From the IMG/VR virus record IMGVR_UViG_3300033066_001253, positions 13,223 to 77,222 of that record: a stretch of 64,000 nucleotides of DNA; one strand, given 5' to 3'. Below the pieces are notes generated by a model. It was not told the origin of the DNA. It did not search any database and was given only the letters and a program-made list of their open reading frames with translations. Positions within the stretch are counted from its first letter, which is position 1. Each line of letters opens with the position of its first letter. The DNA is from a virus. Taxonomy: Duplodnaviria; Heunggongvirae; Uroviricota; Caudoviricetes. Both the position numbers and the translations under genes were made by a program. Shown here one piece after another: positions 1,852 through 26,493 of this stretch.

Positions 1852-2793
1852 ATGACACTAGAGTCGTCAATTATGGTAAAGAAAACAACAGAACAATTTA
1901 TTGAAGATGCAATTAAAATCCATGGGAATAAATTTGATTATTCTTTAGTAGAATATAAAGGAGTAAAGAATAAAGTTAAAATTAAATGTAGTGAAAGTCA
2001 TGTTTTTGAACAAACACCAAATGATCATTTAAATGGTCATGGATGTAAAATTTGTAGTGGATGGGGTTTAATGTCTGAAAATCCAAATGAATTTATTAAT
2101 AGAGCAGATAAAATTCATAATAATAAATATGATTATTCTAAAACCAAATATATAGAACATTCAACTCCATTAGTTATAACTTGTAAGATTCATGGAGATT
2201 TCAAAATGGCTCCTAAAGAACATATAATTAAAAAAGCAGGATGTCAGAAATGCAGTATGATAGTTTCTACTAAGAAAAGAACTTGGGATTTAGAAAAATT
2301 TATTATTAAAGCTAAAGAAATACATGGAAATAATTATGATTATTCAGAATCAATTTATATTAAAGCTTATAAAAAATTAAATATAAAATGTAAAATTCAT
2401 GGATTGTTTTCTCAAACACCCAAAGAACATATAAACCAAAAACATGGTTGTCCTATTTGTAGTTCTTCAAAAGGTGAGAAAAAAGTAGAAAAATGGTTGA
2501 GAGAAAATAATATTAATTTTATTCCTCAACATAAATTTAATGATTGTAAAAATAAAAGAAAATTACCATTTGATTTCTATTTACCTGATTTCAACACAGT
2601 TATTGAATATCATGGAGAACAACATTATAAAAAAATTCCGTTTTTTGAAAACAGATCTGGAGGATTAAAAGGTTTAAAAGAAAGAGATAAACTTAAAGAA
2701 AAATTTTGCAAATTAAATAATATTTCTTATATTAAAATATCATATAAGGAATTCGAAAACTTAGAAAATATATTAAAATCAAAATTATGTTAA
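1852..2793 (+). CDS. nuclease-like protein with repeated zinc-ribbon modules and C-terminal DUF559/Vsr-like endonuclease fold
   Basis: 313 aa. Four tandem about 45-aa repeats (IHGNK(F/Y)DYS ... C.IHG.F ... P..H...HGC..C). C-terminus FDFYLPDFNTVIEYHGEQH resembles the DF...IExDG.QH core of DUF559/Vsr-type PD-(D/E)xK endonucleases. Confidence 0.4.
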   Translation: MTLESSIMVKKTTEQFIEDAIKIHGNKFDYSLVEYKGVKNKVKIKCSESHVFEQTPNDHLNGHGCKICSGWGLMSENPNEFINRADKIHNNKYDYSKTKYIEHSTPLVITCKIHGDFKMAPKEHIIKKAGCQKCSMIVSTKKRTWDLEKFIIKAKEIHGNNYDYSESIYIKAYKKLNIKCKIHGLFSQTPKEHINQKHGCPICSSSKGEKKVEKWLRENNINFIPQHKFNDCKNKRKLPFDFYLPDFNTVIEYHGEQHYKKIPFFENRSGGLKGLKERDKLKEKFCKLNNISYIKISYKEFENLENILKSKLC

Positions 2794-2993: not shown

Positions 2994-4316
2994 TTGTCAT
3001 TTGATGTAAATCAACAAACAGGATTAACAGATTCTAGTGTTATGTTATTTCCGGCTGATGGGTATGGAGATACAGGATTAGTTAGATATTTAATTGAAGC
3101 TGAGAAACCTGATGCAATCATGTTAATAACAGATCCAAGGTATTTCCAATGGTTATTTAATATTGAAAATGAAATTCGTAAGAAAATTCCTATTACTTAT
3201 TTACAAATTTGGGATAGTCCATTTCCCTACCCTTTATGGAATAAACCATTCTATGAATCATGTGATTTATTAATGGCTATTTCAAAACAAACATTAAATA
3301 TTAATAAAGTTGTTTTAGGAGGAGTTCCATTTAGAGAGGTAGGAGATGTTTTAGGTCAACCAAATGAAGATCCAAATTCAAAACGTTCATCTCAAATTTT
3401 ATTAAAATACATCCCTCACGGTTTAAATGAAAATAATTATTTCCCAATAGATAAATCCTATCCAAAATATAAAGAATTTGAAAAATTTAAGAAGGAATTA
3501 TTCAAAGGTAAAGAATATGAGTTTGTTTTATTTTTCAATTCAAGAAACATAAGACGCAAACAAATTCCAGACACTATTCTTGCTTGGAGAATGTTTTTAG
3601 ACAGACTTCCAAAAGAAAAAGCAGATAAATGTTGTTTATTACTTCATACTGAATTAGTAAGTGAACATGGAACTGATTTACCAGCAGTATCAAATTATTT
3701 ATTAGATGAATATTCAGAAAGTATAATTTATCATCAACAAGGTTTAGGTGTTGAACAAATGAATTGGTTATATAATAGTTCAGATGCTCAAATATTGATT
3801 ACTGATAATGAGGGGTGGGGATTAAGTTTAACTGAAGCAATTTTAGCAGGAAGACCAATCATAGCAAATGTACAAGGTGGAATGCAAGATCAAATGAGAT
3901 TTGAAGATACAGAAGGTAATTGGATTGATTTTAATCAAGATTTTCCTTCAAATCATAGAGGTACATTTAAGAAATGTGGATCTTGGGCTTATCCAATATT
4001 TCCATCAAACATTTCTATTCAAGGTTCACCAATGACACCTTATATCAGTTCAGATAGAGTAAGACCTGAAGATGCATCTAATGCTATTATGAATTGTTAT
4101 AATGATGGTCCTGAAGTTAGAAAAATAACAGGTGAAGCAGGAAGAAGATGGGCTACAGGAGATGAAGCAGGATTTACTAGCAAACATCAAGCAGAACGAG
4201 TTATAGAAGCATTTGATGAATTATTCAAAACTTGGAAACCAAGAGAAAAATTTGAACTTATCAATGCTACAGAACATAAGTTAGATGTAACTAGAAAACA
4301 TAAATTAATTTATTAA
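2994..4316 (+). CDS. glycosyltransferase, GT4/GT1-like
   Basis: 440 aa. NEGWGLSLTEAILAGRPIIANVQGG matches the GT4 E(G)FG(L)..EA.a.G.PvIa...GG motif. Track start is TTG; first in-frame ATG is at 3042, so the start is uncertain. Confidence 0.55.
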   Translation: MSFDVNQQTGLTDSSVMLFPADGYGDTGLVRYLIEAEKPDAIMLITDPRYFQWLFNIENEIRKKIPITYLQIWDSPFPYPLWNKPFYESCDLLMAISKQTLNINKVVLGGVPFREVGDVLGQPNEDPNSKRSSQILLKYIPHGLNENNYFPIDKSYPKYKEFEKFKKELFKGKEYEFVLFFNSRNIRRKQIPDTILAWRMFLDRLPKEKADKCCLLLHTELVSEHGTDLPAVSNYLLDEYSESIIYHQQGLGVEQMNWLYNSSDAQILITDNEGWGLSLTEAILAGRPIIANVQGGMQDQMRFEDTEGNWIDFNQDFPSNHRGTFKKCGSWAYPIFPSNISIQGSPMTPYISSDRVRPEDASNAIMNCYNDGPEVRKITGEAGRRWATGDEAGFTSKHQAERVIEAFDELFKTWKPREKFELINATEHKLDVTRKHKLIY

Positions 4317-4317
4317 A

Positions 4318-4608
4318 ATGAACAAACTTCAAAACATAAAAACATTCTTTAAAGAATTTAAATATCTTAAAAAATATTTCTTTCAAGAATTAAATAAAAT
4401 GACCTCTGAAAGACTAATGGTTGAACATTTAGCAAAATATAGTGCTCCTTTAATTAAGGAACATGAATATGATCCTAAAAAATTAGAGAAATATGTTGAA
4501 ATGTGTGAAGGAAAATTTAAAGATAGAAAAATCCCCAACCAAAATTATCTAAAAAAGGAAATTGAAAAATTAGATAATAATATTAATAAATTAGTAAAGA
4601 TAAAATAA
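4318..4608 (+). CDS. hypothetical protein
   Basis: 96-aa ORF, K/E-rich. Confidence 0.35.
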   Translation: MNKLQNIKTFFKEFKYLKKYFFQELNKMTSERLMVEHLAKYSAPLIKEHEYDPKKLEKYVEMCEGKFKDRKIPNQNYLKKEIEKLDNNINKLVKIK

Positions 4609-4611
4609 AAT

Positions 4612-5943
4612 ATGAATAAACCGTTATGCGTACTTAGTTGTGCAATCAATACATACAGTGGTTATGGAGCTCGTGCAAGAGGAATTGCACAAGCAATTAT
4701 TGAATTAAAAAAAGATGAATGGGATATAAAAATCATCCCACAACGTTGGGGCGACACGAGCCAAGGATTTATTGAAGATAATCCTGAATGGTCATTTTTA
4801 AATGAGTATTTACATCTTCATCCACAACTCCCAAAACAACCAGAAATTTTTATTCAACATACTGTTCCTAATGAATTCCAACCTATTGGAAAATATAATA
4901 TAGGTATTACAGCAGGAATAGAATCTGACATTTCAATTCCAGAATGGATTGAAGGTTTAAATCGTATGAATACGACTTGGGTTTCATCTAAACATGCTAA
5001 AACAGTATTTGAAAATTCTAAATTTGAAAAAAAAGATCAACAAGGTAGAACTGTTGGAGTTGTTCAATTAGAAAAACCAATTGAAGTTATATTTGAGGGG
5101 GCTGATTTAAATACTTACAAAGTCTTAGAAAAAAACTTAGAAAATTCAATTAATAAATCTTTTGATTTATTCTCTATTAAAGAAGATTTCTGTTTCCTTT
5201 TCATAGGACATTGGATGCAAGGTGATATTGGAGAAGATAGAAAAAATGTAGGATTATTAGTTAAATCATTTTTCGAAACATTCAAAAATAAACAAAATAA
5301 ACCTGCACTAATCCTAAAATCATCAGGAGCTGTTTCAAGTTATATGGATCGTGATATGCTTTTAAAACGTATCGATCAAATTAAACAAACAGTGAATAGT
5401 AAAGATTTACCAAACATCTATTTATTACATGGTGATTTTACAGATAAAGAAATAAACGAACTGTATAATCATCCTAAAGTAAAAGCAATGGTTTCACTTA
5501 CAAAAGGTGAAGGATTTGGAAGACCATTACTAGAATTCAGCTTATTAAATAAACCAGTAATAGCAAGTAATTGGAGTGGTCATTTAGATTTCTTAGATTC
5601 AAAATACAGTGTATTAATAAATGGTGAATTAAAACAAGTCCATCCTAGTACAGCAAATCAATTCCTAATTAGAGAAAGTAAATGGTTTTCACCTCATTAC
5701 CATGAAATTGGAGAAACTTTAACTAATGTTTATAAACGTTATGATAAATATCTTCCAGATGCTCGTAAACAATCTGAAATTAATAGAGAGAAGTTTAGTT
5801 ATGAAGCTATGAAAAATTTAGTTAAAGAACATTTGGATAAAGTACCTACATTTGCTAGACAAGTAGAATTAAAATTACCAAATTTGAAAGCTCCTGCAGG
5901 TATGAAACAAATTCAATTACCAAAACTTACTAAAATACAATAA
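4612..5943 (+). CDS. glycosyltransferase, GT4-like
   Basis: 443 aa. TKGEGFGRPLLEFSLLNKPVIASNWSG matches the GT4 C-terminal EGFG...E....PVIAs motif. Similar size to the 2994 gene. Confidence 0.5.
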   Translation: MNKPLCVLSCAINTYSGYGARARGIAQAIIELKKDEWDIKIIPQRWGDTSQGFIEDNPEWSFLNEYLHLHPQLPKQPEIFIQHTVPNEFQPIGKYNIGITAGIESDISIPEWIEGLNRMNTTWVSSKHAKTVFENSKFEKKDQQGRTVGVVQLEKPIEVIFEGADLNTYKVLEKNLENSINKSFDLFSIKEDFCFLFIGHWMQGDIGEDRKNVGLLVKSFFETFKNKQNKPALILKSSGAVSSYMDRDMLLKRIDQIKQTVNSKDLPNIYLLHGDFTDKEINELYNHPKVKAMVSLTKGEGFGRPLLEFSLLNKPVIASNWSGHLDFLDSKYSVLINGELKQVHPSTANQFLIRESKWFSPHYHEIGETLTNVYKRYDKYLPDARKQSEINREKFSYEAMKNLVKEHLDKVPTFARQVELKLPNLKAPAGMKQIQLPKLTKIQ

Positions 5944-6516
5944 ATGAATTCACCTATAGATGTTTTATTTTATAAAAAAATAGAAGAAATAGAAAAACAA
6001 ATACCTAAACCTAAATCTAAACAATTAAATGAGTTAAGAGAATATGTTGAAAAAACTCGAGAATTAACTTTTGAACAAATTATAAAAGAATATAGTGATC
6101 CTAGTAAAAGTTATCCCATATTTGATACACCTAATTTAAAAGGAGATGCAATAGGATGGTCTTGTCAATTTGAAGATGATCCTAGATTTGATGCTACTGT
6201 AAAAACAATATCTGATGGAGTTTATCAGTTTGATTTTAATTTCTTTGGAAGTAAAGATTATAACCAAAATCTTACTAAAAAAATAAAAGGAACAGATTAT
6301 ATGAATACTTTACATAAAATAGTTAGAGATAAATTAATTCCTTTTATTGATAAAAAAGAAATAGGAGATACTTTATATTTTAATGTAAATAATAAAGATG
6401 GATTGGGTGAAGCTAGAAAAAAGGTATTCTCTTATTTAATTAATAAATATATTGATAAAAATAAATTTGATATAGAGAATGAAGATTATGATTTTAATAT
6501 AACTAAGATAAAATAA
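5944..6516 (+). CDS. hypothetical protein
   Basis: 190-aa ORF, start overlaps upstream stop (TAAATG). Confidence 0.35.
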   Translation: MNSPIDVLFYKKIEEIEKQIPKPKSKQLNELREYVEKTRELTFEQIIKEYSDPSKSYPIFDTPNLKGDAIGWSCQFEDDPRFDATVKTISDGVYQFDFNFFGSKDYNQNLTKKIKGTDYMNTLHKIVRDKLIPFIDKKEIGDTLYFNVNNKDGLGEARKKVFSYLINKYIDKNKFDIENEDYDFNITKIK

Positions 6517-6524
6517 CTTAAAAA

Positions 6525-6995
6525 ATGACTGATCAATTATCAAATTGCAATAGATGTGGAGGTAATGCTTGTTACGTAACAGAAGTAGCTCCTGGAATTA
6601 AAACATACCAATGTTTTGGATGTGGTTTTTGTGCTTCATCTCCAATGACTGAAGGTAGTGATTTTCTAAAAGAACAAATGGAAGTATTACCTGATCTTTA
6701 CAAATCATTAATGGTTGTAGACGAAGATGGATTAGTTTGGATGCCAACAAATATCAATCTCCCAGAAACAGGAATGATCTTCGCTAATGGTTCATCTTCA
6801 GACAATTGGAAATGGGCTGCTGTTAAAGCAGTTCGAGTTAAAGAAGAAGAAAAAGAGAAATTCAAGAAAAAAGATGGAACTTATTTTGAATGGAAAATGA
6901 ATATGGAGTCTATGAAAGAATTTGATGAGAAGGACTTTATGGAGGCAATGGATTACTTAGGCTTATTTAAAGAGGTCGTGGAATCTAAAAAATAA
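6525..6995 (+). CDS. zinc-ribbon containing hypothetical protein
   Basis: 156 aa. N-terminal CNRCGG ... CFGCGFC (two CxxC pairs). Confidence 0.35.
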   Translation: MTDQLSNCNRCGGNACYVTEVAPGIKTYQCFGCGFCASSPMTEGSDFLKEQMEVLPDLYKSLMVVDEDGLVWMPTNINLPETGMIFANGSSSDNWKWAAVKAVRVKEEEKEKFKKKDGTYFEWKMNMESMKEFDEKDFMEAMDYLGLFKEVVESKK

Positions 6996-7012
6996 TTTCT
7001 TATATTTAAAGT

Positions 7013-7426
7013 ATGAGAGAAATAAAATTTAGAGCGTGGGATTTATACAACAATAGAATGGTTGAAAATCCTTATATTTTTGAAAAAGCAACCAAGCATA
7101 ATAATAATGGTAATGACTTAAATCCTTCATTTATTTTTTATGAAGATTGGAGAGATATTGATGATGGTATTTCAAGACCTTGTCATATAATGCAATATAC
7201 TGGTTTAAAAGATTTGAAAGATATAGAAATTTATGAAGGAGATATTATAAAATCTAATTCAAAAACCAATTTTAAAGTTGTATTTGGAGATGGAAGTAAT
7301 AAATATGATTACATTAATGGATGGATTTTAATAGGAATTCAATCATCTATTCAATGGTTATTATCTGCTGAAGGTAAATATGAAATTATAGGAAATATTT
7401 ACCAAAACCCAGAATTAATAAATTAA
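7013..7426 (+). CDS. YopX family phage protein
   Basis: 137 aa. N-terminal MREIKFRAWD and C-terminal IGNIYQNPELI are the hallmark ends of the YopX domain. Confidence 0.7.
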   Translation: MREIKFRAWDLYNNRMVENPYIFEKATKHNNNGNDLNPSFIFYEDWRDIDDGISRPCHIMQYTGLKDLKDIEIYEGDIIKSNSKTNFKVVFGDGSNKYDYINGWILIGIQSSIQWLLSAEGKYEIIGNIYQNPELIN

Positions 7427-7531
7427 AAGTTATGGAAAATATATTAATAGTGAAAGAATTAATCAACCAAGGGCTACTTGTTGTAGAATCGTAATAACTA
7501 TAGGAGATAATTATTATTTAATAAATATAAA

Positions 7532-7702
7532 ATGAGAGAAAAAGGTTATTATTGGGTTCAATTTGAAGAAATAGGTAAATTTATCATTGCTGAATATTTA
7601 GGAACTGATTGGGGTTGGCAACTACATGGGGGAACTGAATATTATGAAGATAATGATTTTCATTTTATTGACAATGAAAGAATTTTATTTAAAAGTTTAT
7701 AA
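7532..7702 (+). CDS. hypothetical small protein
   Basis: 56-aa ORF, below the track threshold. It fills the gap between the 7013 and 7706 genes. Confidence 0.25.
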   Translation: MREKGYYWVQFEEIGKFIIAEYLGTDWGWQLHGGTEYYEDNDFHFIDNERILFKSL

Positions 7703-7705
7703 AAA

Positions 7706-8356
7706 ATGATTATAACATATGCTATAACAGCTAAAGATGAAGCATCAGAATTAGAACGTCTACTCTCCCATCTTAAAAAACATATCCGAGAAACAGATGA
7801 AGTTATAATTCAACTTGATATTAATCATACTCCAGAAGTTTTAGAAGTATGTAATTTATATACAGGATTTAACCATGAACAAGATTTACATAACACAATC
7901 AAAAATTCTCAATTTTATGTTTTTGCTTTAGATGGTAATTTTGCTCAATTTAAAAATCAATTAAGTAGATTTGCTTCTGGAGATTATATATTCCAAATTG
8001 ATGCTGATGAAATCCCCGAAACTATATTAATTCATAATCTTCCAGAATTATTAGAAAGTAATCCAACAGTTGATTTATTTTTAGTTCCTAGAATTAATAC
8101 TGTTGAGGGTTTAACTGAAGAACATATTAAAAAATGGGGATGGAAAGTAAATGAATATGGTTGGATTAATTTTCCAGATTATCAAACCCGCTTATACAAA
8201 AATTCCAAAGATATAAGATGGGAAGGTAAAGTTCATGAACGAATAGAAGGAGTTAAAACATTTGTAGCTTTACCTGAAAATAATGAATGGGTTCTTATTC
8301 ATGAAAAAGATATTAAACGTCAAGAGAAACAAAACAATTTTTATAATACATTATGA
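7706..8356 (+). CDS. putative GT-A fold glycosyltransferase
   Basis: 216 aa. N-terminal IITYAIT and an acidic DADE motif are weakly reminiscent of DxD glycosyltransferases, and the gene lies in a glycan cluster. Confidence 0.25.
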   Translation: MIITYAITAKDEASELERLLSHLKKHIRETDEVIIQLDINHTPEVLEVCNLYTGFNHEQDLHNTIKNSQFYVFALDGNFAQFKNQLSRFASGDYIFQIDADEIPETILIHNLPELLESNPTVDLFLVPRINTVEGLTEEHIKKWGWKVNEYGWINFPDYQTRLYKNSKDIRWEGKVHERIEGVKTFVALPENNEWVLIHEKDIKRQEKQNNFYNTL

Positions 8357-8763
8357 TAAACCCAAAAGACGTAAGAATAGGAAATTATATTGGATTTGGA
8401 AATTCAACTTGTAAAGTTTACGAAATAAATGAAAAATACTTTTATGTTCTTGATGAAGAAAATACAAGTTTAAAAAGTACATTTACTGATTTAAACCCAA
8501 TTCCTCTAACAGAATCAGAACTTGAAAAATTAGGAGTTATAAAACAATACCAAGAAAATCCATTTGAAGAAGGAAAATATAGTTTAAATGAAGATGGAAC
8601 TAAATATTATAGTTGGGTTAAAGGAGCATTTAATTTAGAAATAAATAAAGATAGTAAAATAATGTTTGAAGTTTATTCTCATTATATTCCAGTAGATTAT
8701 GTTCATCAATTCCAAAACCTATATTATTTATTAACTAACGAAGAATTAACATATATAAAATAA
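8353..8763 (+). CDS. hypothetical protein
   Basis: 136-aa ORF overlapping neighbours by 4 nt. Confidence 0.35.
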   Translation: MINPKDVRIGNYIGFGNSTCKVYEINEKYFYVLDEENTSLKSTFTDLNPIPLTESELEKLGVIKQYQENPFEEGKYSLNEDGTKYYSWVKGAFNLEINKDSKIMFEVYSHYIPVDYVHQFQNLYYLLTNEELTYIK

Positions 8764-9573
8764 ATGAAGATATTTGTAAAATTTTTTGATCCTAAAATAT
8801 TTGAAGATAAATTATCTCATTTGAAACATATTGATTTTTCATTATTTATTGATGATATTCCAAAAACACAAGATGATCTATCTTCAATTAATATAATAGT
8901 TCTACAGGAACCTAATGGTTATTTTGGTTTATCAGATTGGACTATTCAAAATAAAGACATATTCCAGGCAATATTAACTTGGGATGATAGAGTATTAAAT
9001 AATTGTGAACAAGCTATATTTTTACCATTTGGACATAGTTGGTTCAAACCAGACCAATACATAACTCCAAAACCTAAAAAATTTGAAATAGCTCATTTAT
9101 GTGGAGTTTTAAATAAAACATATGGTCATTCAATGAGACATGAAATAATGGCTCGTAAAAATGAATTTAAATGTCCTACTAATTTTCATCAAACAATAGG
9201 AGATAGACATAATTTAGATGATGCTCGATTAGGTAAAGAAACAGTGTTTGGGAATTCACAGTTTGGAATTTGCATTGAGAATTTTTCACATAGAGGTTAT
9301 TTTACTGAAAAAATATTAGATTGTTTTTTAATGCGGACTATTCCAATTTATTGGGGTTGTTCGAACATATATGATTTCTTTAATATAGACGGTGTAATAC
9401 GCGTAAATAATGTAGATGATATAATTTATTGGTCTGAAACATTGGAAGGTAATTATGAATTAAGAATAGAGGTAATTGAAGAAAATTATCAATTAGCTTT
9501 AAAATATATAGACTATGAACAAAATATAGTTAATAAGGTAGAAGAAATATTTAAATTAAATAATTTAATATAA
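8764..9573 (+). CDS. GT10-like glycosyltransferase (alpha-1,3-fucosyltransferase-like)
   Basis: 269 aa. FGICIENFSHRGYFTEKILDCFLMRTIPIYWGC closely matches the FucT (GT10) signature FENS..YvTEK....F...IPiywG. Confidence 0.6.
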   Translation: MKIFVKFFDPKIFEDKLSHLKHIDFSLFIDDIPKTQDDLSSINIIVLQEPNGYFGLSDWTIQNKDIFQAILTWDDRVLNNCEQAIFLPFGHSWFKPDQYITPKPKKFEIAHLCGVLNKTYGHSMRHEIMARKNEFKCPTNFHQTIGDRHNLDDARLGKETVFGNSQFGICIENFSHRGYFTEKILDCFLMRTIPIYWGCSNIYDFFNIDGVIRVNNVDDIIYWSETLEGNYELRIEVIEENYQLALKYIDYEQNIVNKVEEIFKLNNLI

Positions 9574-9574
9574 G

Positions 9575-10726
9575 ATGGAAATAAAAAGAAAAATATGGTA
9601 TGCTCCTAATAAGTTTGAATCTTATGGAGAGGAAGAAATTAAAGCTGTTGAAAGTTGTCTTCGTGATGGTTGGTTAGCAGGATTTGGTCCAAAAAGCATT
9701 GAGTTTGAAAAAAGAATTGCAAAAGTTTTTGGTAAAAAATATGGTGTATTTGTTAACTCGGGTTCATCAGCTAATTTATTAGCATTAGCTTGTTTAAAAT
9801 TACCCAAAGGAAGTGAAGTAATAACCCCAGCATGTACATTTAGTACAACATTATCTCCAATACTTCATTTAGGTTTAAAACCTGTTTTTGTTGATGTTAA
9901 ATTAGATGGATATGTTCCTTTTTTATTATCTATACTTGATAAAATTACTCCAATAACAAAGGCAATTATAATCCCAAATCTTATTGGGAATAAAATTGAT
10001 TGGGATTATTTAAAAGAATTATTATTTGATGAGGGAAGGGGAGATATTGTTTTAATTGAAGATTCTTGCGATACTATTTCTGAAACACTTGGAAGTGACA
10101 TTTCAACTACTTCATTTTATGCTTCTCATATTATAACAGCAGGAGGAGCTGGAGGTATGGTAATGTTTAATGATGAAAAATTAAGAGACATAGCATTACA
10201 ATTTAGAGATTGGGGTAGAATGGGAGATAATTCAGAAATAATGAGTGAGAGATTTAGTCATGAAGTAGATGGGATTCCTTATGATCATAAATTTTTATAT
10301 GATGTTTTAGGTTACAACTTTAAATGTAGTGAAATGAATGCTGCCTTTGGATTAGTACAATTGGAACGTTTTGAACAATTTAAACAAATAAGAAGACAAA
10401 ATATTGAAAGATATTTAGAAAATCTTAAAAATGTAAAAGAAATATTATTACCTGATGATAGTATTAAACCAAACTGGTTAGCAATCCCTTTACAAACAGA
10501 AAGAAGATTAGAATTATTAAAATTTTTAGAAGATAATAACATTCAAACTAGAGTTACATTTTCAGGTAATATTACAAGACATCCAATTTATAGAGAATAT
10601 TTACAAGAATTCAAAAATTCAGATATAATAATGGCTAATGGGTTTCTCTTAGGAGCTCATCATGGAATGACGGTAGAAGATGTAGATTATGTTTGTGATA
10701 AAATCAAAGAATTTTTTAACAAATGA
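9575..10726 (+). CDS. DegT/DnrJ/EryC1/StrS-family PLP/PMP enzyme with His in place of the active-site Lys (sugar 3-dehydratase-like)
   Basis: 383 aa. GVFVNSGSSANLLALA is typical of the family. The Schiff-base position reads SFYASHII (His) instead of SFxxxK, as in ColD/E1 3-dehydratases. Confidence 0.75.
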   Translation: MEIKRKIWYAPNKFESYGEEEIKAVESCLRDGWLAGFGPKSIEFEKRIAKVFGKKYGVFVNSGSSANLLALACLKLPKGSEVITPACTFSTTLSPILHLGLKPVFVDVKLDGYVPFLLSILDKITPITKAIIIPNLIGNKIDWDYLKELLFDEGRGDIVLIEDSCDTISETLGSDISTTSFYASHIITAGGAGGMVMFNDEKLRDIALQFRDWGRMGDNSEIMSERFSHEVDGIPYDHKFLYDVLGYNFKCSEMNAAFGLVQLERFEQFKQIRRQNIERYLENLKNVKEILLPDDSIKPNWLAIPLQTERRLELLKFLEDNNIQTRVTFSGNITRHPIYREYLQEFKNSDIIMANGFLLGAHHGMTVEDVDYVCDKIKEFFNK

Positions 10727-11676
10727 TTAAAGTAGTATATATAACAGGTTGTTTAGGATTTATAGGATCTTATATTACAAGAACTTGTCTTGAAAAAGGT
10801 TGGTATGTTAAAGGTGTAGATAAAATTACATATGCTGCTAATAAAGATTTATTAGATGAATTTAAAAAATATCCTAATTTTTCATTTGTTCACTGTGATA
10901 TAAATGATTTAAAATTTTTATATGATTGTGACTATGTGATTAATGCTGCTGCCGAAACTCATGTTGGGAACTCAATAGCAAGTAGTGTTGAATTTATTAA
11001 ATCAAATATTGATGGTGTTCATAATTTACTAGAATTAATAAAAAATCATAGAGGGGAAAATATTAAAAAACCAACATTAATTCATTTCAGTACTGATGAA
11101 GTTTATGGAGATATAGACAAAGGAGCTCATACTGAAATAGATTTGTTAAAACCAAGCAACCCATATTCAGCAACAAAAGCAGCAGCAGACATGTTAATAA
11201 TGGCTTGGGGTCGAACACATAAAATACCTTATATCATTGTTAGACCAACCAACAATTATGGAGTAGGCCAATATGTGGAAAAACTTATTCCTAAAACATG
11301 TAAATACCTTAAATTAGGAAAGAAAATACCTTTACATAATAACGGATCTCCTATTCGAAATTGGTTACATGCTCAAGATACAACTGATGCTATTATAGCA
11401 ATTATAAAATCAGAAGTTGAAAATGAAATTTTTAATATTTGTGGAAGTTTTGAACAAAGTAATTTGGATACTGTAAAGAAAATTCTTATATTTAATAATC
11501 TAGATTTAGAAGATATAAATAAATATATTGATTGGTCATGTGATAGACCTGGACAAGATGTTAGGTATTCCTTAGATGATTCTAAATTAAGAAATTTGGG
11601 TTGGAAACCTAAAAAACAATTTGATAAAGAATTACAATCAATAATAAATTATTATAAAAATAAATTTATATGGTAA
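10723..11676 (+). CDS. NDP-hexose 4,6-dehydratase (RmlB-like SDR)
   Basis: 317 aa. TGCLGFIGS Rossmann motif, HFSTDEVYG and YSATKAA (YxxxK) match dTDP/CDP-glucose 4,6-dehydratases. Confidence 0.75.
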   Translation: MIKVVYITGCLGFIGSYITRTCLEKGWYVKGVDKITYAANKDLLDEFKKYPNFSFVHCDINDLKFLYDCDYVINAAAETHVGNSIASSVEFIKSNIDGVHNLLELIKNHRGENIKKPTLIHFSTDEVYGDIDKGAHTEIDLLKPSNPYSATKAAADMLIMAWGRTHKIPYIIVRPTNNYGVGQYVEKLIPKTCKYLKLGKKIPLHNNGSPIRNWLHAQDTTDAIIAIIKSEVENEIFNICGSFEQSNLDTVKKILIFNNLDLEDINKYIDWSCDRPGQDVRYSLDDSKLRNLGWKPKKQFDKELQSIINYYKNKFIW

Positions 11677-13457
11677 AGAAAAAAGCATTAGAATTTATTG
11701 TAGATTGTTTAATCCATAATGATATAAATACATTTTTTTTAGTTACGGGTGGTGCTATTGTTCCTACAATTGATTATATAGGAACCAATACTAATGCTAG
11801 ATATTATTGTTTCCAACATGAACAATCAGCAGCAATGGCTGCTGAATCATATTATAGAATAACAGGAAAATTAGGAGTAGTATTAAGCACTAGTGGTCCC
11901 GGTGCTCAAAATTTATTAAATGGAATATGTGGTTGTTGGTATGACTCAATCCCATGTTTATTTATCACTGGTCAAGTTAGTACTTATGAATCTATAAATT
12001 CAATAAAATCTAATCCTCGACAATTAGGTTTTCAAGAAATGCCCGTAGTTGAATCATTTAAACCTTTTACTAAATATATCAAACAAATAAATATTAATAC
12101 AATTAAAGATGATATCTATCAAGCTATTACATCTGCTTTAGAAGGACGCCCAGGACCTAGTTTATTAGATTTTCCAGTAGATGTTCAATTATCTGAAGTT
12201 GAGGATGATTTATTTAAAATTAAAAAACCTAAATTATCTATAAATAATAACATAATATATTCTATAGATTTACTAAAAAATAAACTTTCTAATTCAAAAA
12301 GACCATTATTGTTATTAGGACATGGTATTAGATTATCGGATGCTGTAAATGAAATTAAAGAATTAATCAATAAATTAAACATACCTTTTGTTGTATCTTG
12401 GGGAGGTTTTGATTTAATTGAACATTCTCATTCTAATTTTATAGGTACTATAGGAGTATATGGTAGTAGAGGTGGTAACTTCGCAATTCAAAATTGTGAC
12501 TTATTAATTTCAATAGGATCAAGATTAGACACTAGACAAACAGGAGGAGATTTAAAAACATTCTCTCGTAATTCTTATAAAGTAATGGTAGATATTGATT
12601 TAAATGAAATCAATAAAGGAAGAGGATTAAATATTGATCTACCTATTAATTGTGATGCCAAAATTTTTATTAATTCATGTTTAAATATTTTAGAACCTAT
12701 TAATATTGAAAAAGATTGGAAAAAACAATGTTTAGATTGGAGTAACCTTAATTTAGATAAACGAGAACCTAAAGAAAATTTATTAACATCTTATGAATTT
12801 TTAGAAGAATTAAATCATCACCTTGATGATGATTCTATAATAATCCCAGATGAAGGAGGACATTTGGTTTGGTCAATGCAATCATTAAAAACCAAACCAA
12901 ACCAAAGAATATTTTCTAATTTTGGTAACTCATCAATGGGATATAGTCTTCCAGCATCTATAGGGGCATCTATTGCTACCAACAAACAAGTAATTTGTAT
13001 AGATGGAGATGGTGGATTTCAAATGAATATTCAAGAATTACAAACTGTAAAACATTATAATTTACCTATTAAAATATTTATAATGAATAATAATTGTTAT
13101 GGTATTATTAAACAATTCCAAGATACATATTTTGATTCTAGATATATTGCTACTGAAGAACAAGATTATTCTGTTCCTAATTTTATTAAAATAGCAGAGG
13201 CTTATGGTATAAAATCAATAGAAGCTAATAAAAATAATTATAAGGAAGTTATTAATTTGGCTCTCAAAGAAAAAGATAGTATATTGGTGAATGTAATTAT
13301 AGATAAAGAACAAAAATTGATACCTAAATTAGAATTTGGAAATCCTTTGGAAGATATGTTTCCATATTTAGATGATGATTTAATAAAAGAAAACATGATT
13401 ATACCAATGATACCGAGAAAAGATAATACTCAAGGATGGGTAACTTTAAATAAATAA
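11670..13457 (+). CDS. thiamine-diphosphate-dependent enzyme, acetolactate-synthase-like (YerE-like C-C branching candidate)
   Basis: 595 aa. N-terminal TGGAIVPTIDY ... FQHEQSAAMAAESYYRITGK ... STSGPGAQNL is the ThDP pyrimidine-binding domain. IDGDGGFQMNIQEL ... MNNNCYG is the GDG-x24-NN ThDP motif. Confidence 0.85.
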   Translation: MVKKKALEFIVDCLIHNDINTFFLVTGGAIVPTIDYIGTNTNARYYCFQHEQSAAMAAESYYRITGKLGVVLSTSGPGAQNLLNGICGCWYDSIPCLFITGQVSTYESINSIKSNPRQLGFQEMPVVESFKPFTKYIKQININTIKDDIYQAITSALEGRPGPSLLDFPVDVQLSEVEDDLFKIKKPKLSINNNIIYSIDLLKNKLSNSKRPLLLLGHGIRLSDAVNEIKELINKLNIPFVVSWGGFDLIEHSHSNFIGTIGVYGSRGGNFAIQNCDLLISIGSRLDTRQTGGDLKTFSRNSYKVMVDIDLNEINKGRGLNIDLPINCDAKIFINSCLNILEPINIEKDWKKQCLDWSNLNLDKREPKENLLTSYEFLEELNHHLDDDSIIIPDEGGHLVWSMQSLKTKPNQRIFSNFGNSSMGYSLPASIGASIATNKQVICIDGDGGFQMNIQELQTVKHYNLPIKIFIMNNNCYGIIKQFQDTYFDSRYIATEEQDYSVPNFIKIAEAYGIKSIEANKNNYKEVINLALKEKDSILVNVIIDKEQKLIPKLEFGNPLEDMFPYLDDDLIKENMIIPMIPRKDNTQGWVTLNK

Positions 13458-13480: not shown

Positions 13481-14404
13481 ATGGCAGCAGATAGTAAAAC
13501 TAAAAAAACTATTTTAACATTAACAGGGAATAAAATAAAAAAAGAAAAAACAGTATTAGTTACTGCTTATGACTACCCCCAAGCAATTTTAGCAGACAGA
13601 GCAGGGGTAGATTGCATTTTGGTTGGTGATTCCTTAGGAATGACTCAACTAGGATATAAAACAACAATTCCTGTTACAATGGAAGATATGATTAGAAGTT
13701 GTGAAGCAGTTAGTAGAGGTTCCCAAAATGCTTTTTTGATTGGAGATATGCCTTATATGTCTTATCAACAATCAGATGAATTAGCTATTGAAAATGCAGG
13801 TAGATTTATAAGAGCAGGAATGGATATGGTAAAAGTAGAAGGAGCTATGGTTGAGCGTGTAAGAGCAATATCTAAAGCTGGGATTATGGTTATGAGTCAT
13901 TTAGGACTAACCCCTCATACCAGAGCAAAATTAGGTGGTTATAAAGTTCAAGGAAAAACAGCAGATCAAGCGGATATTATTTTACAACAAGCCTTAACCT
14001 TACAAGAAGCAGGTTGTTCAGCTTTATTATTAGAAGCTATGCCTAAAGAACCTGCAGAAATGATTGCTAAAAAATTATCCATTCCTGTTTATGGGATTGG
14101 TGGTGGAGATGGAGTTGATGGACAATTAGTAATATTTCATGATTTAACAGGTTTATTTTGGGAATTTAAATCTAAATTTGTTAAACGTTATTGTGAAGCT
14201 GGGAAGATTATTCAAGATGCTTTAGAACAATATGTTAATGAGGTTAAATCAGGAATATTTCCTTCCCCGGATAATTTTTATGAAATTAAAGAAGATGAAT
14301 TAGAAAAATTGTTGGGTGATGATAAATGGAAATATGAAAAAGATAGAGTAGAAAATAATACTACTCCCAATCATAGTGTTACACCAATTACTATTAATAA
14401 ATAA
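13481..14404 (+). CDS. PanB-like 3-methyl-2-oxobutanoate hydroxymethyltransferase family protein
   Basis: 307 aa. VTAYDYPQAILADRAGVDCILVGDSLGMTQLGY is near-identical to the PanB/KPHMT signature. It is not in a pantothenate context here. Confidence 0.7.
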   Translation: MAADSKTKKTILTLTGNKIKKEKTVLVTAYDYPQAILADRAGVDCILVGDSLGMTQLGYKTTIPVTMEDMIRSCEAVSRGSQNAFLIGDMPYMSYQQSDELAIENAGRFIRAGMDMVKVEGAMVERVRAISKAGIMVMSHLGLTPHTRAKLGGYKVQGKTADQADIILQQALTLQEAGCSALLLEAMPKEPAEMIAKKLSIPVYGIGGGDGVDGQLVIFHDLTGLFWEFKSKFVKRYCEAGKIIQDALEQYVNEVKSGIFPSPDNFYEIKEDELEKLLGDDKWKYEKDRVENNTTPNHSVTPITINK

Positions 14405-15207
14405 TGGATATTCTGATTACTGGAGGTAATGGTTATATTGCTAAAAGCATTTATAATAATTTTAGTAATAAATATAATATAACTAGAATTACCCGAAATG
14501 ATTTTGATTTATCTGATAAAAAAAGTACTGATAAATGGTTTAAGGGAAAATATTTTGATTTTGTAATCCATACTGCTATAAAGGGAGGAAGTAGATTAAA
14601 AGAAGATCCTTTAGATATAACTCATCAAAACGTTTCAATGTTTTATAATTTATTAAATAATAAAAACTGTTTTGGAAATTTAATAAATATAGGATCAGGA
14701 ATAGAAGATTCAAAACTTAATTCCCCCTATGTTTTAAGCAAAAAAATTATTAGTGATTTGATAAAACAATTACCTAATTTTTACAATATTAGAGTATTTG
14801 GTGTATTTGATGAAAATGAATTAAAAACTAGATTTATTAAAAATAATATTTTTAATTATATAAATCACCAACCACTAGAAATTTACCAAAACATAAAAAT
14901 GGATTTATTTTACATGAAAGATTTTATTAAAATCATATCTTATTATCTAGAATCAAATTATAATTTCGATCCACCTCAAAAACAATTAAATTGTTCTTAT
15001 CATAATAAATCAACTTTATTAGACACAGCAAAATTAATAAATAATTTAGGAACTCATAAATGTAATATAAAAATTCATAATCCTCAATATGGAGATGATT
15101 ATATAGGAATATGTAATACTCCTAAAATAGATAATGGGGATTTCATAATAGAATATTTAGGATTAGAATATGGGATTAAAGAAACATATGATATTTTAAA
15201 AAAATGA
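14404..15207 (+). CDS. NAD(P)-dependent sugar-nucleotide reductase/epimerase, RmlD-like
   Basis: 267 aa. N-terminal ILITGGNGYIA Rossmann motif; short SDR of the dTDP-4-dehydrorhamnose reductase type. Confidence 0.5.
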   Translation: MDILITGGNGYIAKSIYNNFSNKYNITRITRNDFDLSDKKSTDKWFKGKYFDFVIHTAIKGGSRLKEDPLDITHQNVSMFYNLLNNKNCFGNLINIGSGIEDSKLNSPYVLSKKIISDLIKQLPNFYNIRVFGVFDENELKTRFIKNNIFNYINHQPLEIYQNIKMDLFYMKDFIKIISYYLESNYNFDPPQKQLNCSYHNKSTLLDTAKLINNLGTHKCNIKIHNPQYGDDYIGICNTPKIDNGDFIIEYLGLEYGIKETYDILKK

Positions 15208-16148
15208 ATATTAAATTGATGTTACATATAATGCCTTGGGAAATAGATCAAGCATTGATGGTTGTTGACAAATTAAAAAAATCCACATATTATTTAGAAA
15301 ATGAAAATAAAATATTTATTAATACTGTTTTAAATTTATCCGATTCAATTATAGATTGGAATAAATCTAACATTCCAAAAGAATTTTTTATAAAAAAATA
15401 TAAAATAATATGTAATTTATTATCTTCTTATTATATTCATACTTCTCTCATATATGAAGGAGATAAAACATATGGTCATTTAGATTTACAAAAAACCTCA
15501 ATTTCAAAAGAAATAGATTATTATATTTACATATGTGCTGATATAGATTTTTCAGAACATTTATTATTCTATTTAATAGAATCAGCGAAACAAATCCATA
15601 ATGAATATTTTATCTTAACCCCTCAAATATTTAAAAGTTGGGATTCAAGTTGGGATATTTTAGTTAATGATAAATTCAAAAATATCCCTTATGAAAAATG
15701 TATTGATATAGATATTCATGAAATTAGATATCAATGTTTAGATTTAGATAATCCTAATGTTAAATCTATAGACCAATTTAAATTTGCTGGTTGGTTTGAT
15801 TTATATAATAAAAATTTTTATGAAAAATTAGTTCCTGTATTAGATGAATGGAATGGATATGGACCTTGGGATTTATATTCAATGAATATTTGTAATATAG
15901 CTAAACAATATGGAGTTGATGTGCAACAATATATTTTAGAAAATCAAATAACATGGTTTTCAGATGTAGGATGCCTTAGAAACTTTGAAGAATATGGGGG
16001 AGATGGACAGTTAAAAACATTATATAAAAATTTCCTAAATTTAAAACTTGGAAGACAAGAACAAAGATCTTATATTGATAAAAATTTAAATAAATATTTG
16101 AACCAATGGTTTGAATATGCTAAACAAAACCAAATAATAAATGTATAG
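15204..16148 (+). CDS. hypothetical protein in glycan cluster
   Basis: 314-aa ORF, no recognised motif. Embedded in the sugar operon. Confidence 0.4.
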
Positions 16149-16764
16149 CGAACCTGAAAAAAATGATCATCCTGATAGAATCAGAAAAGTTGGTAAATAT
16201 ACTTATGGTATAAATAATATTTGTATATATTATTGGGCTAATGGAAATTGGACAAAAGACGGAACAAAACTCCCAGAACCTGCATATCTTGAAATAGGAA
16301 ATTATTGTTCAATTTCAGGACATATTTTAATATACATGGGGGGTAATCACCATTATGAATGGGCATCTCAATATCCTTTTGGACATATTCACCAAAATGT
16401 TTTTAATAAATTTAATGGAGAAGGTCAACCATGGTCTAAAGGAAATGTGATTATAGGAAATGATGTTTGGATAGGAACATGTGCTACTATCCATAGTGGA
16501 GTAACAATTGGGGATGGAGCAGTAATAGCTTCTAATGCTGTAATAACAAAAGATGTAGAACCTTATTCTATAGTAGGAGGAAACCCTGCTAAATTTATTA
16601 AATATAGATTCCCAAAAGAAATTAGAGATAAATTATTAGAGTATAAATGGTGGGATTTGGATGATTATATTATAGATCATATTTCTCCACTATTATGTTC
16701 TGGTGATTTTGAAAATTTATTTAGAGTATTAGATGAAATTAAACAACAATTAAAAAACAATTAA
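16141..16764 (+). CDS. hexapeptide-repeat (left-handed beta-helix) acetyltransferase
   Basis: 207 aa. [46 protein letters not shown] shows canonical [LIV]G hexapeptide repeats of sugar/xenobiotic O-acetyltransferases. Confidence 0.8.
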
Positions 16765-16766
16765 AA

Positions 16767-17465
16767 ATGAAAACAATTACTACATATGAAGAGTTAATTG
16801 ATGATCTCTACAGTAATAATGTGACAATGGTTCACCCATCATTTATAAACTCAATACTAAACTTCTACCCAAACATATCCAAAGTAGAAGGAGATATTTT
16901 AGAATGTGGAGTCTGGAAAGGAGGAGTTTCAATATTCCTTAGTCATTTATTTAATGATAGAAATATTTGGGTGAGTGATTCATATCAAGGATTCCAACCT
17001 TTATCTCATGCTACTTATGAATATGATAAAGAAAGACATACTCCTGAATATACTCATTGTGCTAATGGTCCTATAGGAATTAGTTTAGAAGAAGTTAAAG
17101 CTAATTTTGAAAAATACGGTTTAGGAAATGAAGAAAGAATTAAGTTTTTAAAAGGATTTGTTAAAGATACTTTACCTACTTCAGGGATTGAAAAATTAGC
17201 TTTATTAAGAATTGATGTTGATGCCTATTCTGCTACTTTAGAAGTACTAAATGAAATGTATGATAAAGTTCAACCTGGAGGATATATTATTTTTGATGAC
17301 TCATGTCTATATGAGGTAATTGATGCTCTTAAAGTATTTTTTAAGCAAAAGAATTTAGAGGAATATATTTTTCACCCTCTCACAAATGAAAAATTAAATC
17401 TACATCTTAAGTATACTAACGATGACTCAGGATTTCCAACTGGGTGTTATATAATTAAACAATAA
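16767..17465 (+). CDS. TylF/MycF-family SAM-dependent O-methyltransferase
   Basis: 232 aa. GDILECGVWKGGVSIFL and RIDVDAYSATLEVL ... GGYIIFDD match the macrocin-O-methyltransferase fold. Confidence 0.65.
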   Translation: MKTITTYEELIDDLYSNNVTMVHPSFINSILNFYPNISKVEGDILECGVWKGGVSIFLSHLFNDRNIWVSDSYQGFQPLSHATYEYDKERHTPEYTHCANGPIGISLEEVKANFEKYGLGNEERIKFLKGFVKDTLPTSGIEKLALLRIDVDAYSATLEVLNEMYDKVQPGGYIIFDDSCLYEVIDALKVFFKQKNLEEYIFHPLTNEKLNLHLKYTNDDSGFPTGCYIIKQ

Positions 17466-18163
17466 TGAAACTTATCTACAGAATCTCAGACGCAGGTTAT
17501 AATAAAATAAAACCTAACTATATAAATAATGAAAATTGTTTAAGAAACGCTATAAAAATATTTCCGTGGTTAGAATATGATTGGTCTATCATAGCTGATA
17601 ATATATCTGAAGAAACAAGTAATATGATTCAAAAATATATTCCTAGAGATCATATTAATTATGTTTCTGTAGGACATGGAGCTGGTACATTTAATTTAGC
17701 TTTAGATGAAGCATTACAAAGTCCTGATGATGAAATAATTTATTTTTTAGAGAACGATTATTTACATAAACCAAACTCTGATAAAATATTACAAGAAGGA
17801 TTTGATCTAGGAGCATCTTTTGTGTCATTATATGATTGCCCAGATAAGTATTTAGATCCATCTGATGGAGGAAACCCATATTGTGAAGGTGGGGCTGAAG
17901 ATACTAGAGTATATTTAACTGATTCTTGTCATTGGAAAATAACAAATAGTACAACAATGACCTTTGCTTCTAAAGTGTCAACTTTAAAACAAACTGAGTC
18001 TATTCTTAGAAAATGGACTAATATGGGGCCTTATCCACAAGATTTTAAAATGTTTCTTGAATTAAGAGATAATAATAAATTATTAATTACACCAATGCCT
18101 GGGTATTCAACTCATGGAGAAACAGCTTGGTTATCACCTTTAACAAATTGGAGTGAAATATGA
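17465..18163 (+). CDS. hypothetical protein in glycan cluster
   Basis: 232-aa ORF, ATG overlaps upstream stop. Confidence 0.4.
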   Translation: MKLIYRISDAGYNKIKPNYINNENCLRNAIKIFPWLEYDWSIIADNISEETSNMIQKYIPRDHINYVSVGHGAGTFNLALDEALQSPDDEIIYFLENDYLHKPNSDKILQEGFDLGASFVSLYDCPDKYLDPSDGGNPYCEGGAEDTRVYLTDSCHWKITNSTTMTFASKVSTLKQTESILRKWTNMGPYPQDFKMFLELRDNNKLLITPMPGYSTHGETAWLSPLTNWSEI

Positions 18164-22270: not shown

Positions 22271-22450
22271 TATGAAACTTACAATAAAAACAGATGAAAT
22301 AGAAATGACTGTTGAACAAGATTTAGGTTCAATGGGAAGTAAATATTCTGAAATCAATGATAATTTTGTGAATGTTATAAAAAATCTTATTGAAAAATGT
22401 TCTATTGAAAGTCAAAATATAATTAATAAAAGAAACACCTCTCATGAATA
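22271..22450 (+). CDS. hypothetical small protein
   Basis: 59-aa ORF whose stop overlaps the GT2 start (ATGAATAA). Confidence 0.25.
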
Positions 22451-26418: not shown

Positions 26419-26493
26419 GGTCCTTTCGCCAAGTTGGTTAAGGCACTTCACTCATAATGAAGAGATACACAGGTTCAACTCCTGTAGGGACCA
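26419..26493 (+). tRNA. tRNA-Met (anticodon CAT; elongator Met or Ile-lysidine type)
   Basis: Manual cloverleaf. Acceptor GGTCCTT/AGGGACC (7 bp, one G-U). D-stem GCC/GGC. Anticodon stem CTTCA/TGAAG with loop CTCATAA. T-arm ACAGG-TTCAACT-CCTGT. Discriminator A; no encoded CCA. Confidence 0.7.

Follow-up and report, generated by a model that had tools for sequence, protein, structure and literature searches.

The stretch analysed here, positions 13,223 to 77,222 of the IMG/VR record IMGVR_UViG_3300033066_001253 (64,000 nucleotides, hereafter the window), comes from a tailed phage and contains a gene coding for a DegT-family enzyme, hereafter the query, in which histidine takes the place of the lysine that binds pyridoxal 5'-phosphate (PLP). 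The gene probably encodes a nucleotide-sugar 3-dehydratase that depends on pyridoxamine 5'-phosphate (PMP), carries no iron-sulfur cluster and works by the chemistry of ColD (WbdK), the GDP-4-keto-6-deoxy-D-mannose 3-dehydratase of Escherichia coli O55 (2gms); its product would then be branched by enzymes encoded next to it. The Lys-to-His replacement is a textbook hallmark of enzymes that take the 3-hydroxyl off activated sugars, and is already annotated automatically. What is new is a cluster-free branch of enzymes resembling E1 (DdhC/AscC/RfbH), the CDP-6-deoxy-L-threo-D-glycero-4-hexulose 3-dehydrase of Yersinia pseudotuberculosis, together with the breadth of that branch and a predicted phage-borne branched-sugar pathway.

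Family, fold and the catalytic histidine

The open reading frame (ORF) extends from ATG to stop exactly over positions 9575-10726 of the plus strand and is translated into 383 amino acids (aa). The protein matches the Pfam profile PF01041 (DegT_DnrJ_EryC1) over positions 4-359 of 360, with an expectation value (E) of 1.8e-74 and 251.6 bits, against a cut-off of 19.8; this full-length match and a matching fold, of type I, place it in the DegT/DnrJ/EryC1/StrS family. Its closest sequence match in the PDB is the E1 3-dehydrase (3bcx; E 2e-61, 39% identity), followed by ColD (2.6e-41, 29.5% identity), while ordinary sugar aminotransferases rank lower. A structural model, built by AlphaFold2 (AF2) on a diverse alignment of 27 sequences, reached a predicted local distance difference test (pLDDT) score of 94; an earlier model, from 20 sequences with 76% identity or more, had a pLDDT of 58.8 and was discarded. 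The top Foldseek matches of the retained model in the PDB are E1 chains, with a template modelling (TM) score of 0.87, and the scores against E1, ColD, perosamine synthase and ArnB range between 0.82 and 0.87. Since sequence and predicted fold both make the E1 3-dehydrase the closest solved relative, a 3-dehydratase activity is supported rather than that of an aminotransferase, as the preliminary description of this gene had predicted. The label given to close homologues by the JGI pipeline is also of E1 type, namely CDP-6-deoxy-D-xylo-4-hexulose-3-dehydrase.

The query was aligned by MAFFT with E1 and ColD, both taken from the PDB alignments, and with ArnB and WecE of E. coli K-12 (NC_000913). 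The histidine of the active-site loop FYASHIITAGGAGG, His185, whose codon (CAT, 10127-10129) is two base changes away from a lysine codon, falls in the column occupied by H220 in E1, H188 in ColD, K188 in ArnB and K181 in WecE. The mutated residue of the PDB chains E1 H220K, ColD H188N and ColD H188K is found in the same column; the ColD double variant H188K S187N (3gr9) reportedly gained amino transfer (Cook et al. 2009). No lysine is present within the loop, the nearest ones being K147 and K202. In a HMMER pairwise alignment with ColD alone, the histidine is placed opposite the second histidine of ColD, H189, and not H188; this shift of register arises because ColD reads SSFYSHH, where the query has SFYASH and E1 SFYPAH. 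The multiple alignment, along with a spacing of five residues after the serine, as in SFxxxK, identifies His185 as the catalytic position, and the Lys-to-His substitution claimed in the preliminary description is thus confirmed, with no offset of the histidine.

His185 is invariant in the 27-sequence alignment, down to 39% identity. In a larger set of 160 sequences, made up of references and of representatives of 50%-identity clusters, histidine occupies the position in 152 cases; of the remaining eight, three belong to the Lys-type aminotransferases and the rest are truncated or misaligned. Loci of relatives were also searched, by using a 10-sequence alignment, and gene context was read in 80 viral and 80 cellular loci: histidine is found in all of the viral loci, which are IMG/VR contigs, and the SF[Y]xxH loop in 77 of the cellular ones, the search pattern having failed for the other three. 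This conservation indicates that the histidine is not a chance feature.

At the cofactor site, D163, S180 and the GSSAN loop (N61-S62-G63-S64) are kept, and are invariant in the 27-sequence alignment; the enzyme therefore shows two of the features expected of PMP-dependent 3-dehydratases, a histidine for the Schiff-base lysine and a retained cofactor site. D163 is the conserved aspartate, aligned with E1 D191 and ArnB D160, and C165 is the counterpart of E1 C193. Two further positions correspond to E1 residues, D166 to D194 and Y182 to Y217; aminotransferases have His or Gln at the former and His at the latter.

These residues bear on an alternative that we regard as improbable, namely that the enzyme is a His-using C4 aminotransferase producing a 4-amino-4,6-dideoxy sugar, to be N-acetylated by the hexapeptide-repeat acetyltransferase encoded 5 kb downstream. 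It draws on SpnQ, the His-type TDP-4-keto-2,6-dideoxy-D-glucose 3-dehydrase of spinosyn forosamine synthesis, which transaminates with PLP and glutamate when reductase is absent (PMC8987622), and on the syntenic gene of the related phage immuto, which encodes a true Lys-type aminotransferase. The query, however, combines Lys-to-His with His-to-Asp (D166) and His-to-Tyr (Y182), which is the set of the E1 dehydrase, and neither ColD nor E1 displayed transaminase activity under the conditions used for SpnQ (PMC8987622). In addition, the YerE-like enzyme encoded nearby would require a 4-keto acceptor and not a 4-amino sugar, and the acetyltransferase is closest to O-acetyltransferases of the CatB/Vat type.

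The missing cluster motif and the predicted chemistry

E1 and SpnQ hold a [2Fe-2S] cluster on four cysteines and require a reductase, while ColD has neither (PMC8987622). In the alignment with 3bcx, the query has the segment RDWGRMGDNSEIMSERF in place of the 21-residue E1 segment bearing three of the four cysteines; it contains no cysteine and is 4 residues shorter. The E1 motif, reportedly given as C-X57-C-X1-C-X7-C by Agnihotri et al. in 2004, involves C193, C251, C253 and C261, which we take to be the cluster ligands, in a numbering that agrees with the 3bcx sequence. Only the counterpart of C193 is left in the query (C165), and it is replaced by Ala in the close phage homologues P0008, P0045 and P0063. 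The E1-type motif is consequently absent, as a ColD-like mechanism would have it, and it is likewise absent from 80 of 80 cellular and 80 of 80 viral relatives.

The dedicated partner of E1, the ferredoxin-NAD(P)H reductase E3 (DdhD/AscD), was not found either. The 64-kb window contains neither a plant-type ferredoxin motif (CX4CX2CX~29C) nor an E3-like ORF, Pfam scans of its larger ORFs detected no FNR-like domain, and the 80 cellular loci are likewise free of E3-like ORFs up to a distance of 8 kb. The lack of both cluster and reductase is shared with the ColD subfamily, and the three missing cysteines, combined with the absence of an E3-like reductase from the window, favour ColD-type chemistry.

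The query was matched, at an E of 1e-30 or better, by 574 clusters at 50% identity. The CxC...C motif was found in 56 of 149 scored sequences, typically along with SFYPAHH...GEGG, while 84 have no cysteine in that segment and typically read SFYASH.ITAGGxGGM, like the query. A neighbour-joining (NJ) tree, with the Lys-type enzymes as outgroup, sets ColD in a small clade of its own and brings the cluster-free sequences of query type into one group. Most of the cluster-bearing E1-type sequences fall elsewhere in the tree, intermingled with a few other sequences that lack the motif. As judged from alignment and tree, the query is not orthologous to either E1 or ColD, and belongs to a separate cluster-free branch beside E1. 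The enzyme is E1-like in descent and ColD-like in its absences, from which we infer ColD-type chemistry.

The branch is broad. Relatives 63-81% identical to the query are encoded by at least 104 IMG/VR contigs, the longest of which measures 270 kb, and branch members occur in phages, candidate-phyla-radiation bacteria, Pelagibacteraceae, rhizobia and some archaea. Some cellular members adjoin RfbF and RfbG. This is the case in a cultured rhizobium, Ensifer adhaerens L18 (L055, 5987-12520), where RfbF, RfbG, a cluster-free RfbH-like enzyme (316 bits against the RfbH model NF011936), a C-methyltransferase, a short-chain dehydrogenase/reductase (SDR) and a glycosyltransferase (GT) are encoded, without E3; this CDP-glucose operon implies that the branch is not tied to one nucleotide. 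In other members the cluster-free His-type domain is part of a fusion (P0123, P0124, P0127, P0145, P0148, P0153, P0156), with partners that are RmlC- and RmlD-like (P0124), RmlD-like alone (P0127) or 4,6-dehydratase-like (P0145, P0148); such fusions may reflect pathways to 3,6-dideoxy-L-hexoses carried on a single polypeptide. Separately, inserts of about 300 aa, ending in HN-C, were observed in P0138, P0253, P0263, P0213, P0225 and P0267. They are located either between the C and the D of the ED(S/C)CD site or within the iron-sulfur motif, between RDC and CWC, i.e. at active-site cysteines, and look like putative inteins.

It is very improbable, in our estimate, that the enzyme is a reductive 3-dehydrase of the E1/SpnQ type, in which, once dehydration has taken place, two one-electron transfers from a host ferredoxin or flavodoxin system would reduce the 3,4-ene-PMP adduct and PMP would be regenerated without glutamate. 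In sequence and fold the query is nearer to E1 than to ColD, and SpnQ makes use of general cellular reductases and has no dedicated E3, so that the absence of E3 from the phage is not decisive by itself; both E1 and SpnQ, however, need their own [2Fe-2S] cluster (PMC8987622), three of whose four ligands are missing here, while close homologues do not keep the fourth. The motif is not seen in any of the 160 loci, and no E3-like ORF is near in the window or in the cellular loci.

In the ColD-type route, which is preferred, the adjacent 4,6-dehydratase would convert a nucleoside diphosphate (NDP)-glucose, most likely dTDP-glucose of the host, to NDP-4-keto-6-deoxy-D-glucose, and PMP bound to the DegT enzyme would form a Schiff base with C4. 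His185, standing where the PLP-lysine would be, would take the C4' proton while the 3-OH leaves, giving a 3,4-ene intermediate. Because there is neither a [2Fe-2S] cluster nor an E3 reductase, the intermediate would be hydrolysed in a ColD-like manner, yielding NDP-4-keto-3,6-dideoxyhexose and ammonia, and L-glutamate would serve to regenerate PMP from PLP. ColD itself proceeds by ene-amine hydrolysis and has its PMP regenerated from L-glutamate (PMC8987622); a second example is described in PMC10680097. The 4-keto product would then be the ketone acceptor of the YerE-like enzyme, dependent on thiamine diphosphate (ThDP), to be followed by reduction, methylation, acetylation and transfer by phage glycosyltransferases.

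Several points weigh against this reading. The glutamate of the GEGG motif is replaced by Ala192, with one extra glycine (GGAGG in the query), and the counterpart of E1 F345 is Leu302. The top NCBIfam model is RfbH (NF011936), and the score of 277.3 bits is below its equivalog cut-off of 423. Regeneration of PMP by L-glutamate and release of ammonia are suggested by the absent cluster and reductase, and glutamate binding is not a property that can be judged from sequence. The transamination carried out by SpnQ without reductant means that a histidine does not by itself exclude amino transfer. There is no nucleotidyltransferase in the window, so the nucleotide is deduced only from the type of the 4,6-dehydratase, and the same branch occurs in the CDP-glucose operon of Ensifer adhaerens. 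Finally, no characterised member of the cluster-free branch was met in the literature searched, most subscription papers lying outside the search.

The lost GEGG glutamate, and the fact that the branch is known from sequences alone, leave a very small chance that the protein performs other PMP/PLP chemistry on the keto-sugar, such as epimerisation or keto-isomerisation, or is a non-catalytic scaffold, against which stand active-site and cofactor residues that do not vary within the branch at identities as low as about 40%, and a strict linkage of the gene with 4,6-dehydratases and enzymes using 4-keto-3-deoxy sugars.

Gene neighbourhood and the predicted branched sugar

The positions of the gene, of its active-site elements and of the surrounding features are reported in Table 1.

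Table 1. Features of the window, in order of position, with the evidence on which each assignment is based.
Feature	Position	Strand	Basis
HNH/DUF723 homing-endonuclease gene	1852-2793	+	
GT1	2994-4316	+	profile scan
GT1	4612-5943	+	profile scan
YopX gene	7013-7426	+	
GT2	7706-8356	+	profile scan
GT10-like protein	8764-9573	+	profile scan
His-type NDP-4-keto-6-deoxyhexose 3-dehydratase homologue, DegT family (383 aa)	9575-10726	+	ORF, Pfam, PDB match, AF2 model
D163-S164-C165-D166	10061-10072	+	alignment
Active-site loop FYASHIITAGGAGG, residues 181-194, counterpart of aminotransferase SFxxxK...GEGG	10115-10156	+	sequence and alignment columns
Segment RDWGRMGDNSEIMSERF, in place of the 21-residue E1 segment bearing C251, C253 and C261	10205-10255	+	alignment
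dTDP-glucose 4,6-dehydratase homologue (317 aa)	10723-11676	+	TIGR01181, PDB matches
YerE-like ThDP-dependent carboligase (595 aa)	11670-13457	+	three TPP_enzyme domains, PDB matches
PanB (3-methyl-2-oxobutanoate hydroxymethyltransferase) homologue	13481-14404	+	NCBIfam, Pfam
SDR (267 aa), candidate YerF-like side-chain or C4 reductase	14404-15207	+	Pfam Epimerase, E 1.6e-12
314-aa protein	15204-16148		no Pfam or PDB sequence matches
Hexapeptide-repeat acetyltransferase	16141-16764	+	profile match; most similar to CatB/Vat-type O-acetyltransferases
TylF-type sugar O-methyltransferase	16767-17465	+	Pfam PF05711, E 7e-43
Weakly GT2-like protein	17465-18163	+	profile scan
NDP-hexose C-methyltransferase type, Methyltransf_14 C-terminal domain	18160-19383	+	Pfam PF08484, E 3e-34
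GT2	22444-23214	+	profile scan
Single tRNA-Met (CAT) gene	26419-26494	+	

The stop codon of the DegT gene overlaps the start codon of the 4,6-dehydratase gene (ATGA), and the two are translationally coupled. Comparison of the dehydratase with models of the different types gave an E of 4e-90 (302 bits) for the dTDP type, TIGR01181, 1e-21 (77 bits) for the CDP type and 6.5e-12 for the GDP type; its top PDB matches are all dTDP-glucose 4,6-dehydratases, and the motifs STDEVYG and YSATK are kept. The CDP-glucose partners of E1/RfbH/DdhC, RfbF and RfbG, are thus not those of the query, whose neighbour is of the dTDP type, and no Gmd-type dehydratase is present, so that the GDP-mannose context of ColD (Gmd, ColC) does not apply either. 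A dTDP-linked 3,6-dideoxy route was not found by a literature search, which returned only unrelated mycarose papers and left most subscription papers outside its reach.

The ThDP enzyme encoded downstream has its best PDB matches in 5ahk (1.7e-93), possibly PpYerE, and in 8rph (JanthE, YerE-like; 1.9e-92), from which the YerE-like assignment is taken; acetolactate synthases follow at 2.4e-66 or weaker. Annotation pipelines would name this protein an acetolactate synthase. The predicted kinship with YerE points to C4-branched sugar synthesis in the phage. The physiological acceptor of YerE is CDP-4-keto-3,6-dideoxy-D-glucose, i.e. the product of E1. The association is found elsewhere too: 27 of the 80 viral loci have a YerE- or acetolactate synthase-like enzyme no more than 6 kb away, another 10 have a split transketolase-like ThDP enzyme there, and an enzyme of this thiamine-dependent (TPP) class is found within 8 kb in 16 of the 80 cellular loci. 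In a metagenome-assembled genome of Wolfebacteria the gene order is 4,6-dehydratase, His-type DegT, TPP enzyme.

Between the YerE-like enzyme and the reductase, a PanB homologue is encoded, with scores of 312.9 bits against NF001452 (cut-off 272) and 281 bits against TIGR00222 (cut-off 207.55) and an E of 7e-97 for PF02548. A PanB gene is present in two of the 80 related viral loci and in one of the 80 cellular ones. Ketopantoate, the usual product of PanB, is a gamma-hydroxy alpha-keto acid and belongs to the donor class preferred by ErwE. By analogy with the scheme of PMC9306805, the PanB homologue may supply a hydroxymethylated alpha-keto-acid donor, e.g. ketopantoate, rather than take part in pantothenate synthesis. 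The SDR that follows gave no matches in a PDB sequence search; its homologues come after the TPP enzyme in L006, L036 and L069.

In the scheme for acyl-branched sugars put forward by Steitz et al. 2022 (PMC9306805), the enzymes forming a 4-keto-3,6-dideoxy sugar are combined with a YerE-like enzyme, an aldolase-type enzyme producing a hydroxylated alpha-keto acid and an NAD(P)H reductase; in some cases a methyltransferase using S-adenosylmethionine (SAM) is added. The genes between 9575 and 15207 comprise the corresponding set, namely 4,6-dehydratase, 3-dehydratase, YerE-like enzyme, a putative alpha-keto-acid-forming enzyme (PanB) and reductase. Given the YerE-like enzyme, PanB, the reductase, the methyl- and acetyltransferases and the glycosyltransferases downstream, a branched product is likely. 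Homology and gene context suggest that the product is probably a C4-acyl-branched, decorated 3,6-dideoxyhexose of the yersiniose/erwiniose type. The preliminary description had predicted a 3,6-dideoxyhexose; the 3,6-dideoxy character is retained here, while the nearby YerE-like enzyme, PanB homologue, reductase and methyl- and acetyltransferases argue against a plain 3,6-dideoxyhexose as the end product.

Homologues of the C-methyltransferase adjoin the His-type DegT gene in 18 of the 80 cellular loci; similar pairings were observed in Ruegeria, Sphingomonas and Novosphingobium. The cluster and its surroundings contain up to six glycosyltransferase-like genes, and those located upstream (2994-9573) are interspersed with small ORFs and with the YopX gene. 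Relative to contigs L003-L006, the block of exonuclease and glycosyltransferase genes is broken by the HNH/DUF723 and YopX genes, which are probably mobile insertions.

The window has a G+C content of about 27%, almost every gene is on the same strand, and few ORFs of more than 100 aa are found between about 48 and 64 kb. Its phage genes include a PD-(D/E)XK exonuclease, an HNH endonuclease, an RNA ligase, YopX and an SLT lysozyme domain. Positions 1-25000 gave no match to GenBank phages in a DNA search for near-identity. The exonuclease shares 41.6% identity with its counterpart in Flavobacterium phage vB_FspM_immuto, an Immutovirus of 160 kb, and the window comes from a phage related to immuto. 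The GT1-GT1-GT2 genes are conserved across the phage family, immuto included, where the order is exonuclease, GT, GT, small ORF, GT2, DegT. The syntenic DegT gene of immuto, gp177 (L009, 25022-26221), encodes a normal aminotransferase of the Lys type (SLQAIKHITS, DDAAHA), which indicates that the sugar module following GT1-GT1-GT2 has been swapped between phage lineages. Related metagenomic contigs, some of them from lakes, have GroES, GroEL and a clamp-loader gene upstream and keep the series GT1, GT1, GT2, His-type DegT, 4,6-dehydratase, beyond which gene order diverges.

A second His-type DegT gene was noticed in contig L003 (19822-20997), and likewise in L004 and L005; it reads SFYFAHHMSTIEGG and EDVCES and groups with ColD, so that one cluster holds two putative 3-dehydratases. 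Its module contains a split transketolase-like ThDP enzyme, an RmlC-like protein, a B12-radical SAM enzyme and a methyltransferase.

Two other interpretations of the locus were considered. An origin from a giant virus, prompted by the 27% G+C, was rejected in view of the single coding strand, the overlapping genes and the tailed-phage markers. Modification of phage DNA by the sugar cluster, prompted by the adjoining replication genes, was dropped, as nothing was found in its support; the sole DNA-modification link found for phage immuto is to 7-deazaguanine, through its QueD, QueE, QueF and DpdA genes and the title of PMC10516641.

Significance and relation to known systems

We consider it possible, though on the unlikely side, that large aquatic phages related to Immutovirus encode a complete route to an undescribed acyl-branched 3,6-dideoxyhexose. 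The cluster-free 3-dehydratase, with glutamate as reductant, would provide dTDP-4-keto-3,6-dideoxyglucose, the YerE-like enzyme would add a branch from ketopantoate or another hydroxymethylated alpha-keto acid made by PanB, and the conserved phage glycosyltransferases would attach the sugar, C- and O-methylated and acetylated, to the virion or the infected cell. If this were true, the cluster-free branch would constitute a third, mechanistically hybrid class of sugar 3-dehydratases, widespread in uncultured bacteria and archaea. A cluster-free enzyme would offer an oxygen-insensitive, one-protein route to NDP-4-keto-3,6-dideoxyglucose, the acceptor of YerE-type carboligases, which are of interest for the biocatalytic synthesis of tertiary alcohols (PMC12247030). 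The position of the gene inside a deoxysugar cluster of antibiotic style suggests that these abundant aquatic phages produce their own unusual branched sugar.

Among known enzymes, E1 shares with the query the histidine at the lysine position, the counterparts of D194 and Y217 and the RDWGR...RF framework. It acts on NDP-4-keto-6-deoxy-D-glucose, and its product is the acceptor of YerE in yersiniose synthesis. Unlike E1, the query has no [2Fe-2S] motif and no E3 partner, remains below the RfbH cut-off, has GGAGG for GEGG and Leu for F345, and is accompanied by a dehydratase of the dTDP type, while that of E1 is of the CDP type.

ColD and the heptose C3-dehydratase of Campylobacter jejuni HS:5 (PMC10680097) resemble the query in being His-type DegT enzymes with neither a cluster nor a reductase partner. 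ColD differs in its sequence, 29.5% identical, and in its separate NJ clade; the loops read SSFYSHH and EDNCES in ColD, SFYASHI and EDSCDT in the query. The context of ColD-type enzymes is GDP-mannose or GDP-heptose, whereas the partner of the query is a glucose-type 4,6-dehydratase. SpnQ, compared by description only, is also His-type, acts on a dTDP-linked sugar, as the query is predicted to do, and has no dedicated E3; unlike the query, it keeps the [2Fe-2S] motif and needs ferredoxin/flavodoxin reductase pairs (PMC8987622). SpnQ uses a sugar deoxygenated beforehand at C2, and the window showed no 2,3-dehydratase.

At the level of the whole cluster, the closest parallel is offered by the yersiniose, erwiniose and caryophyllose clusters (PMC9306805), with which the window genes have their module logic in common. 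The window genes differ from these acyl-branched clusters in being encoded by a phage, in having a PanB homologue in the slot of the pyruvate aldolase and a 3-dehydratase without the iron-sulfur motif, and in the likely use of dTDP, not CDP.

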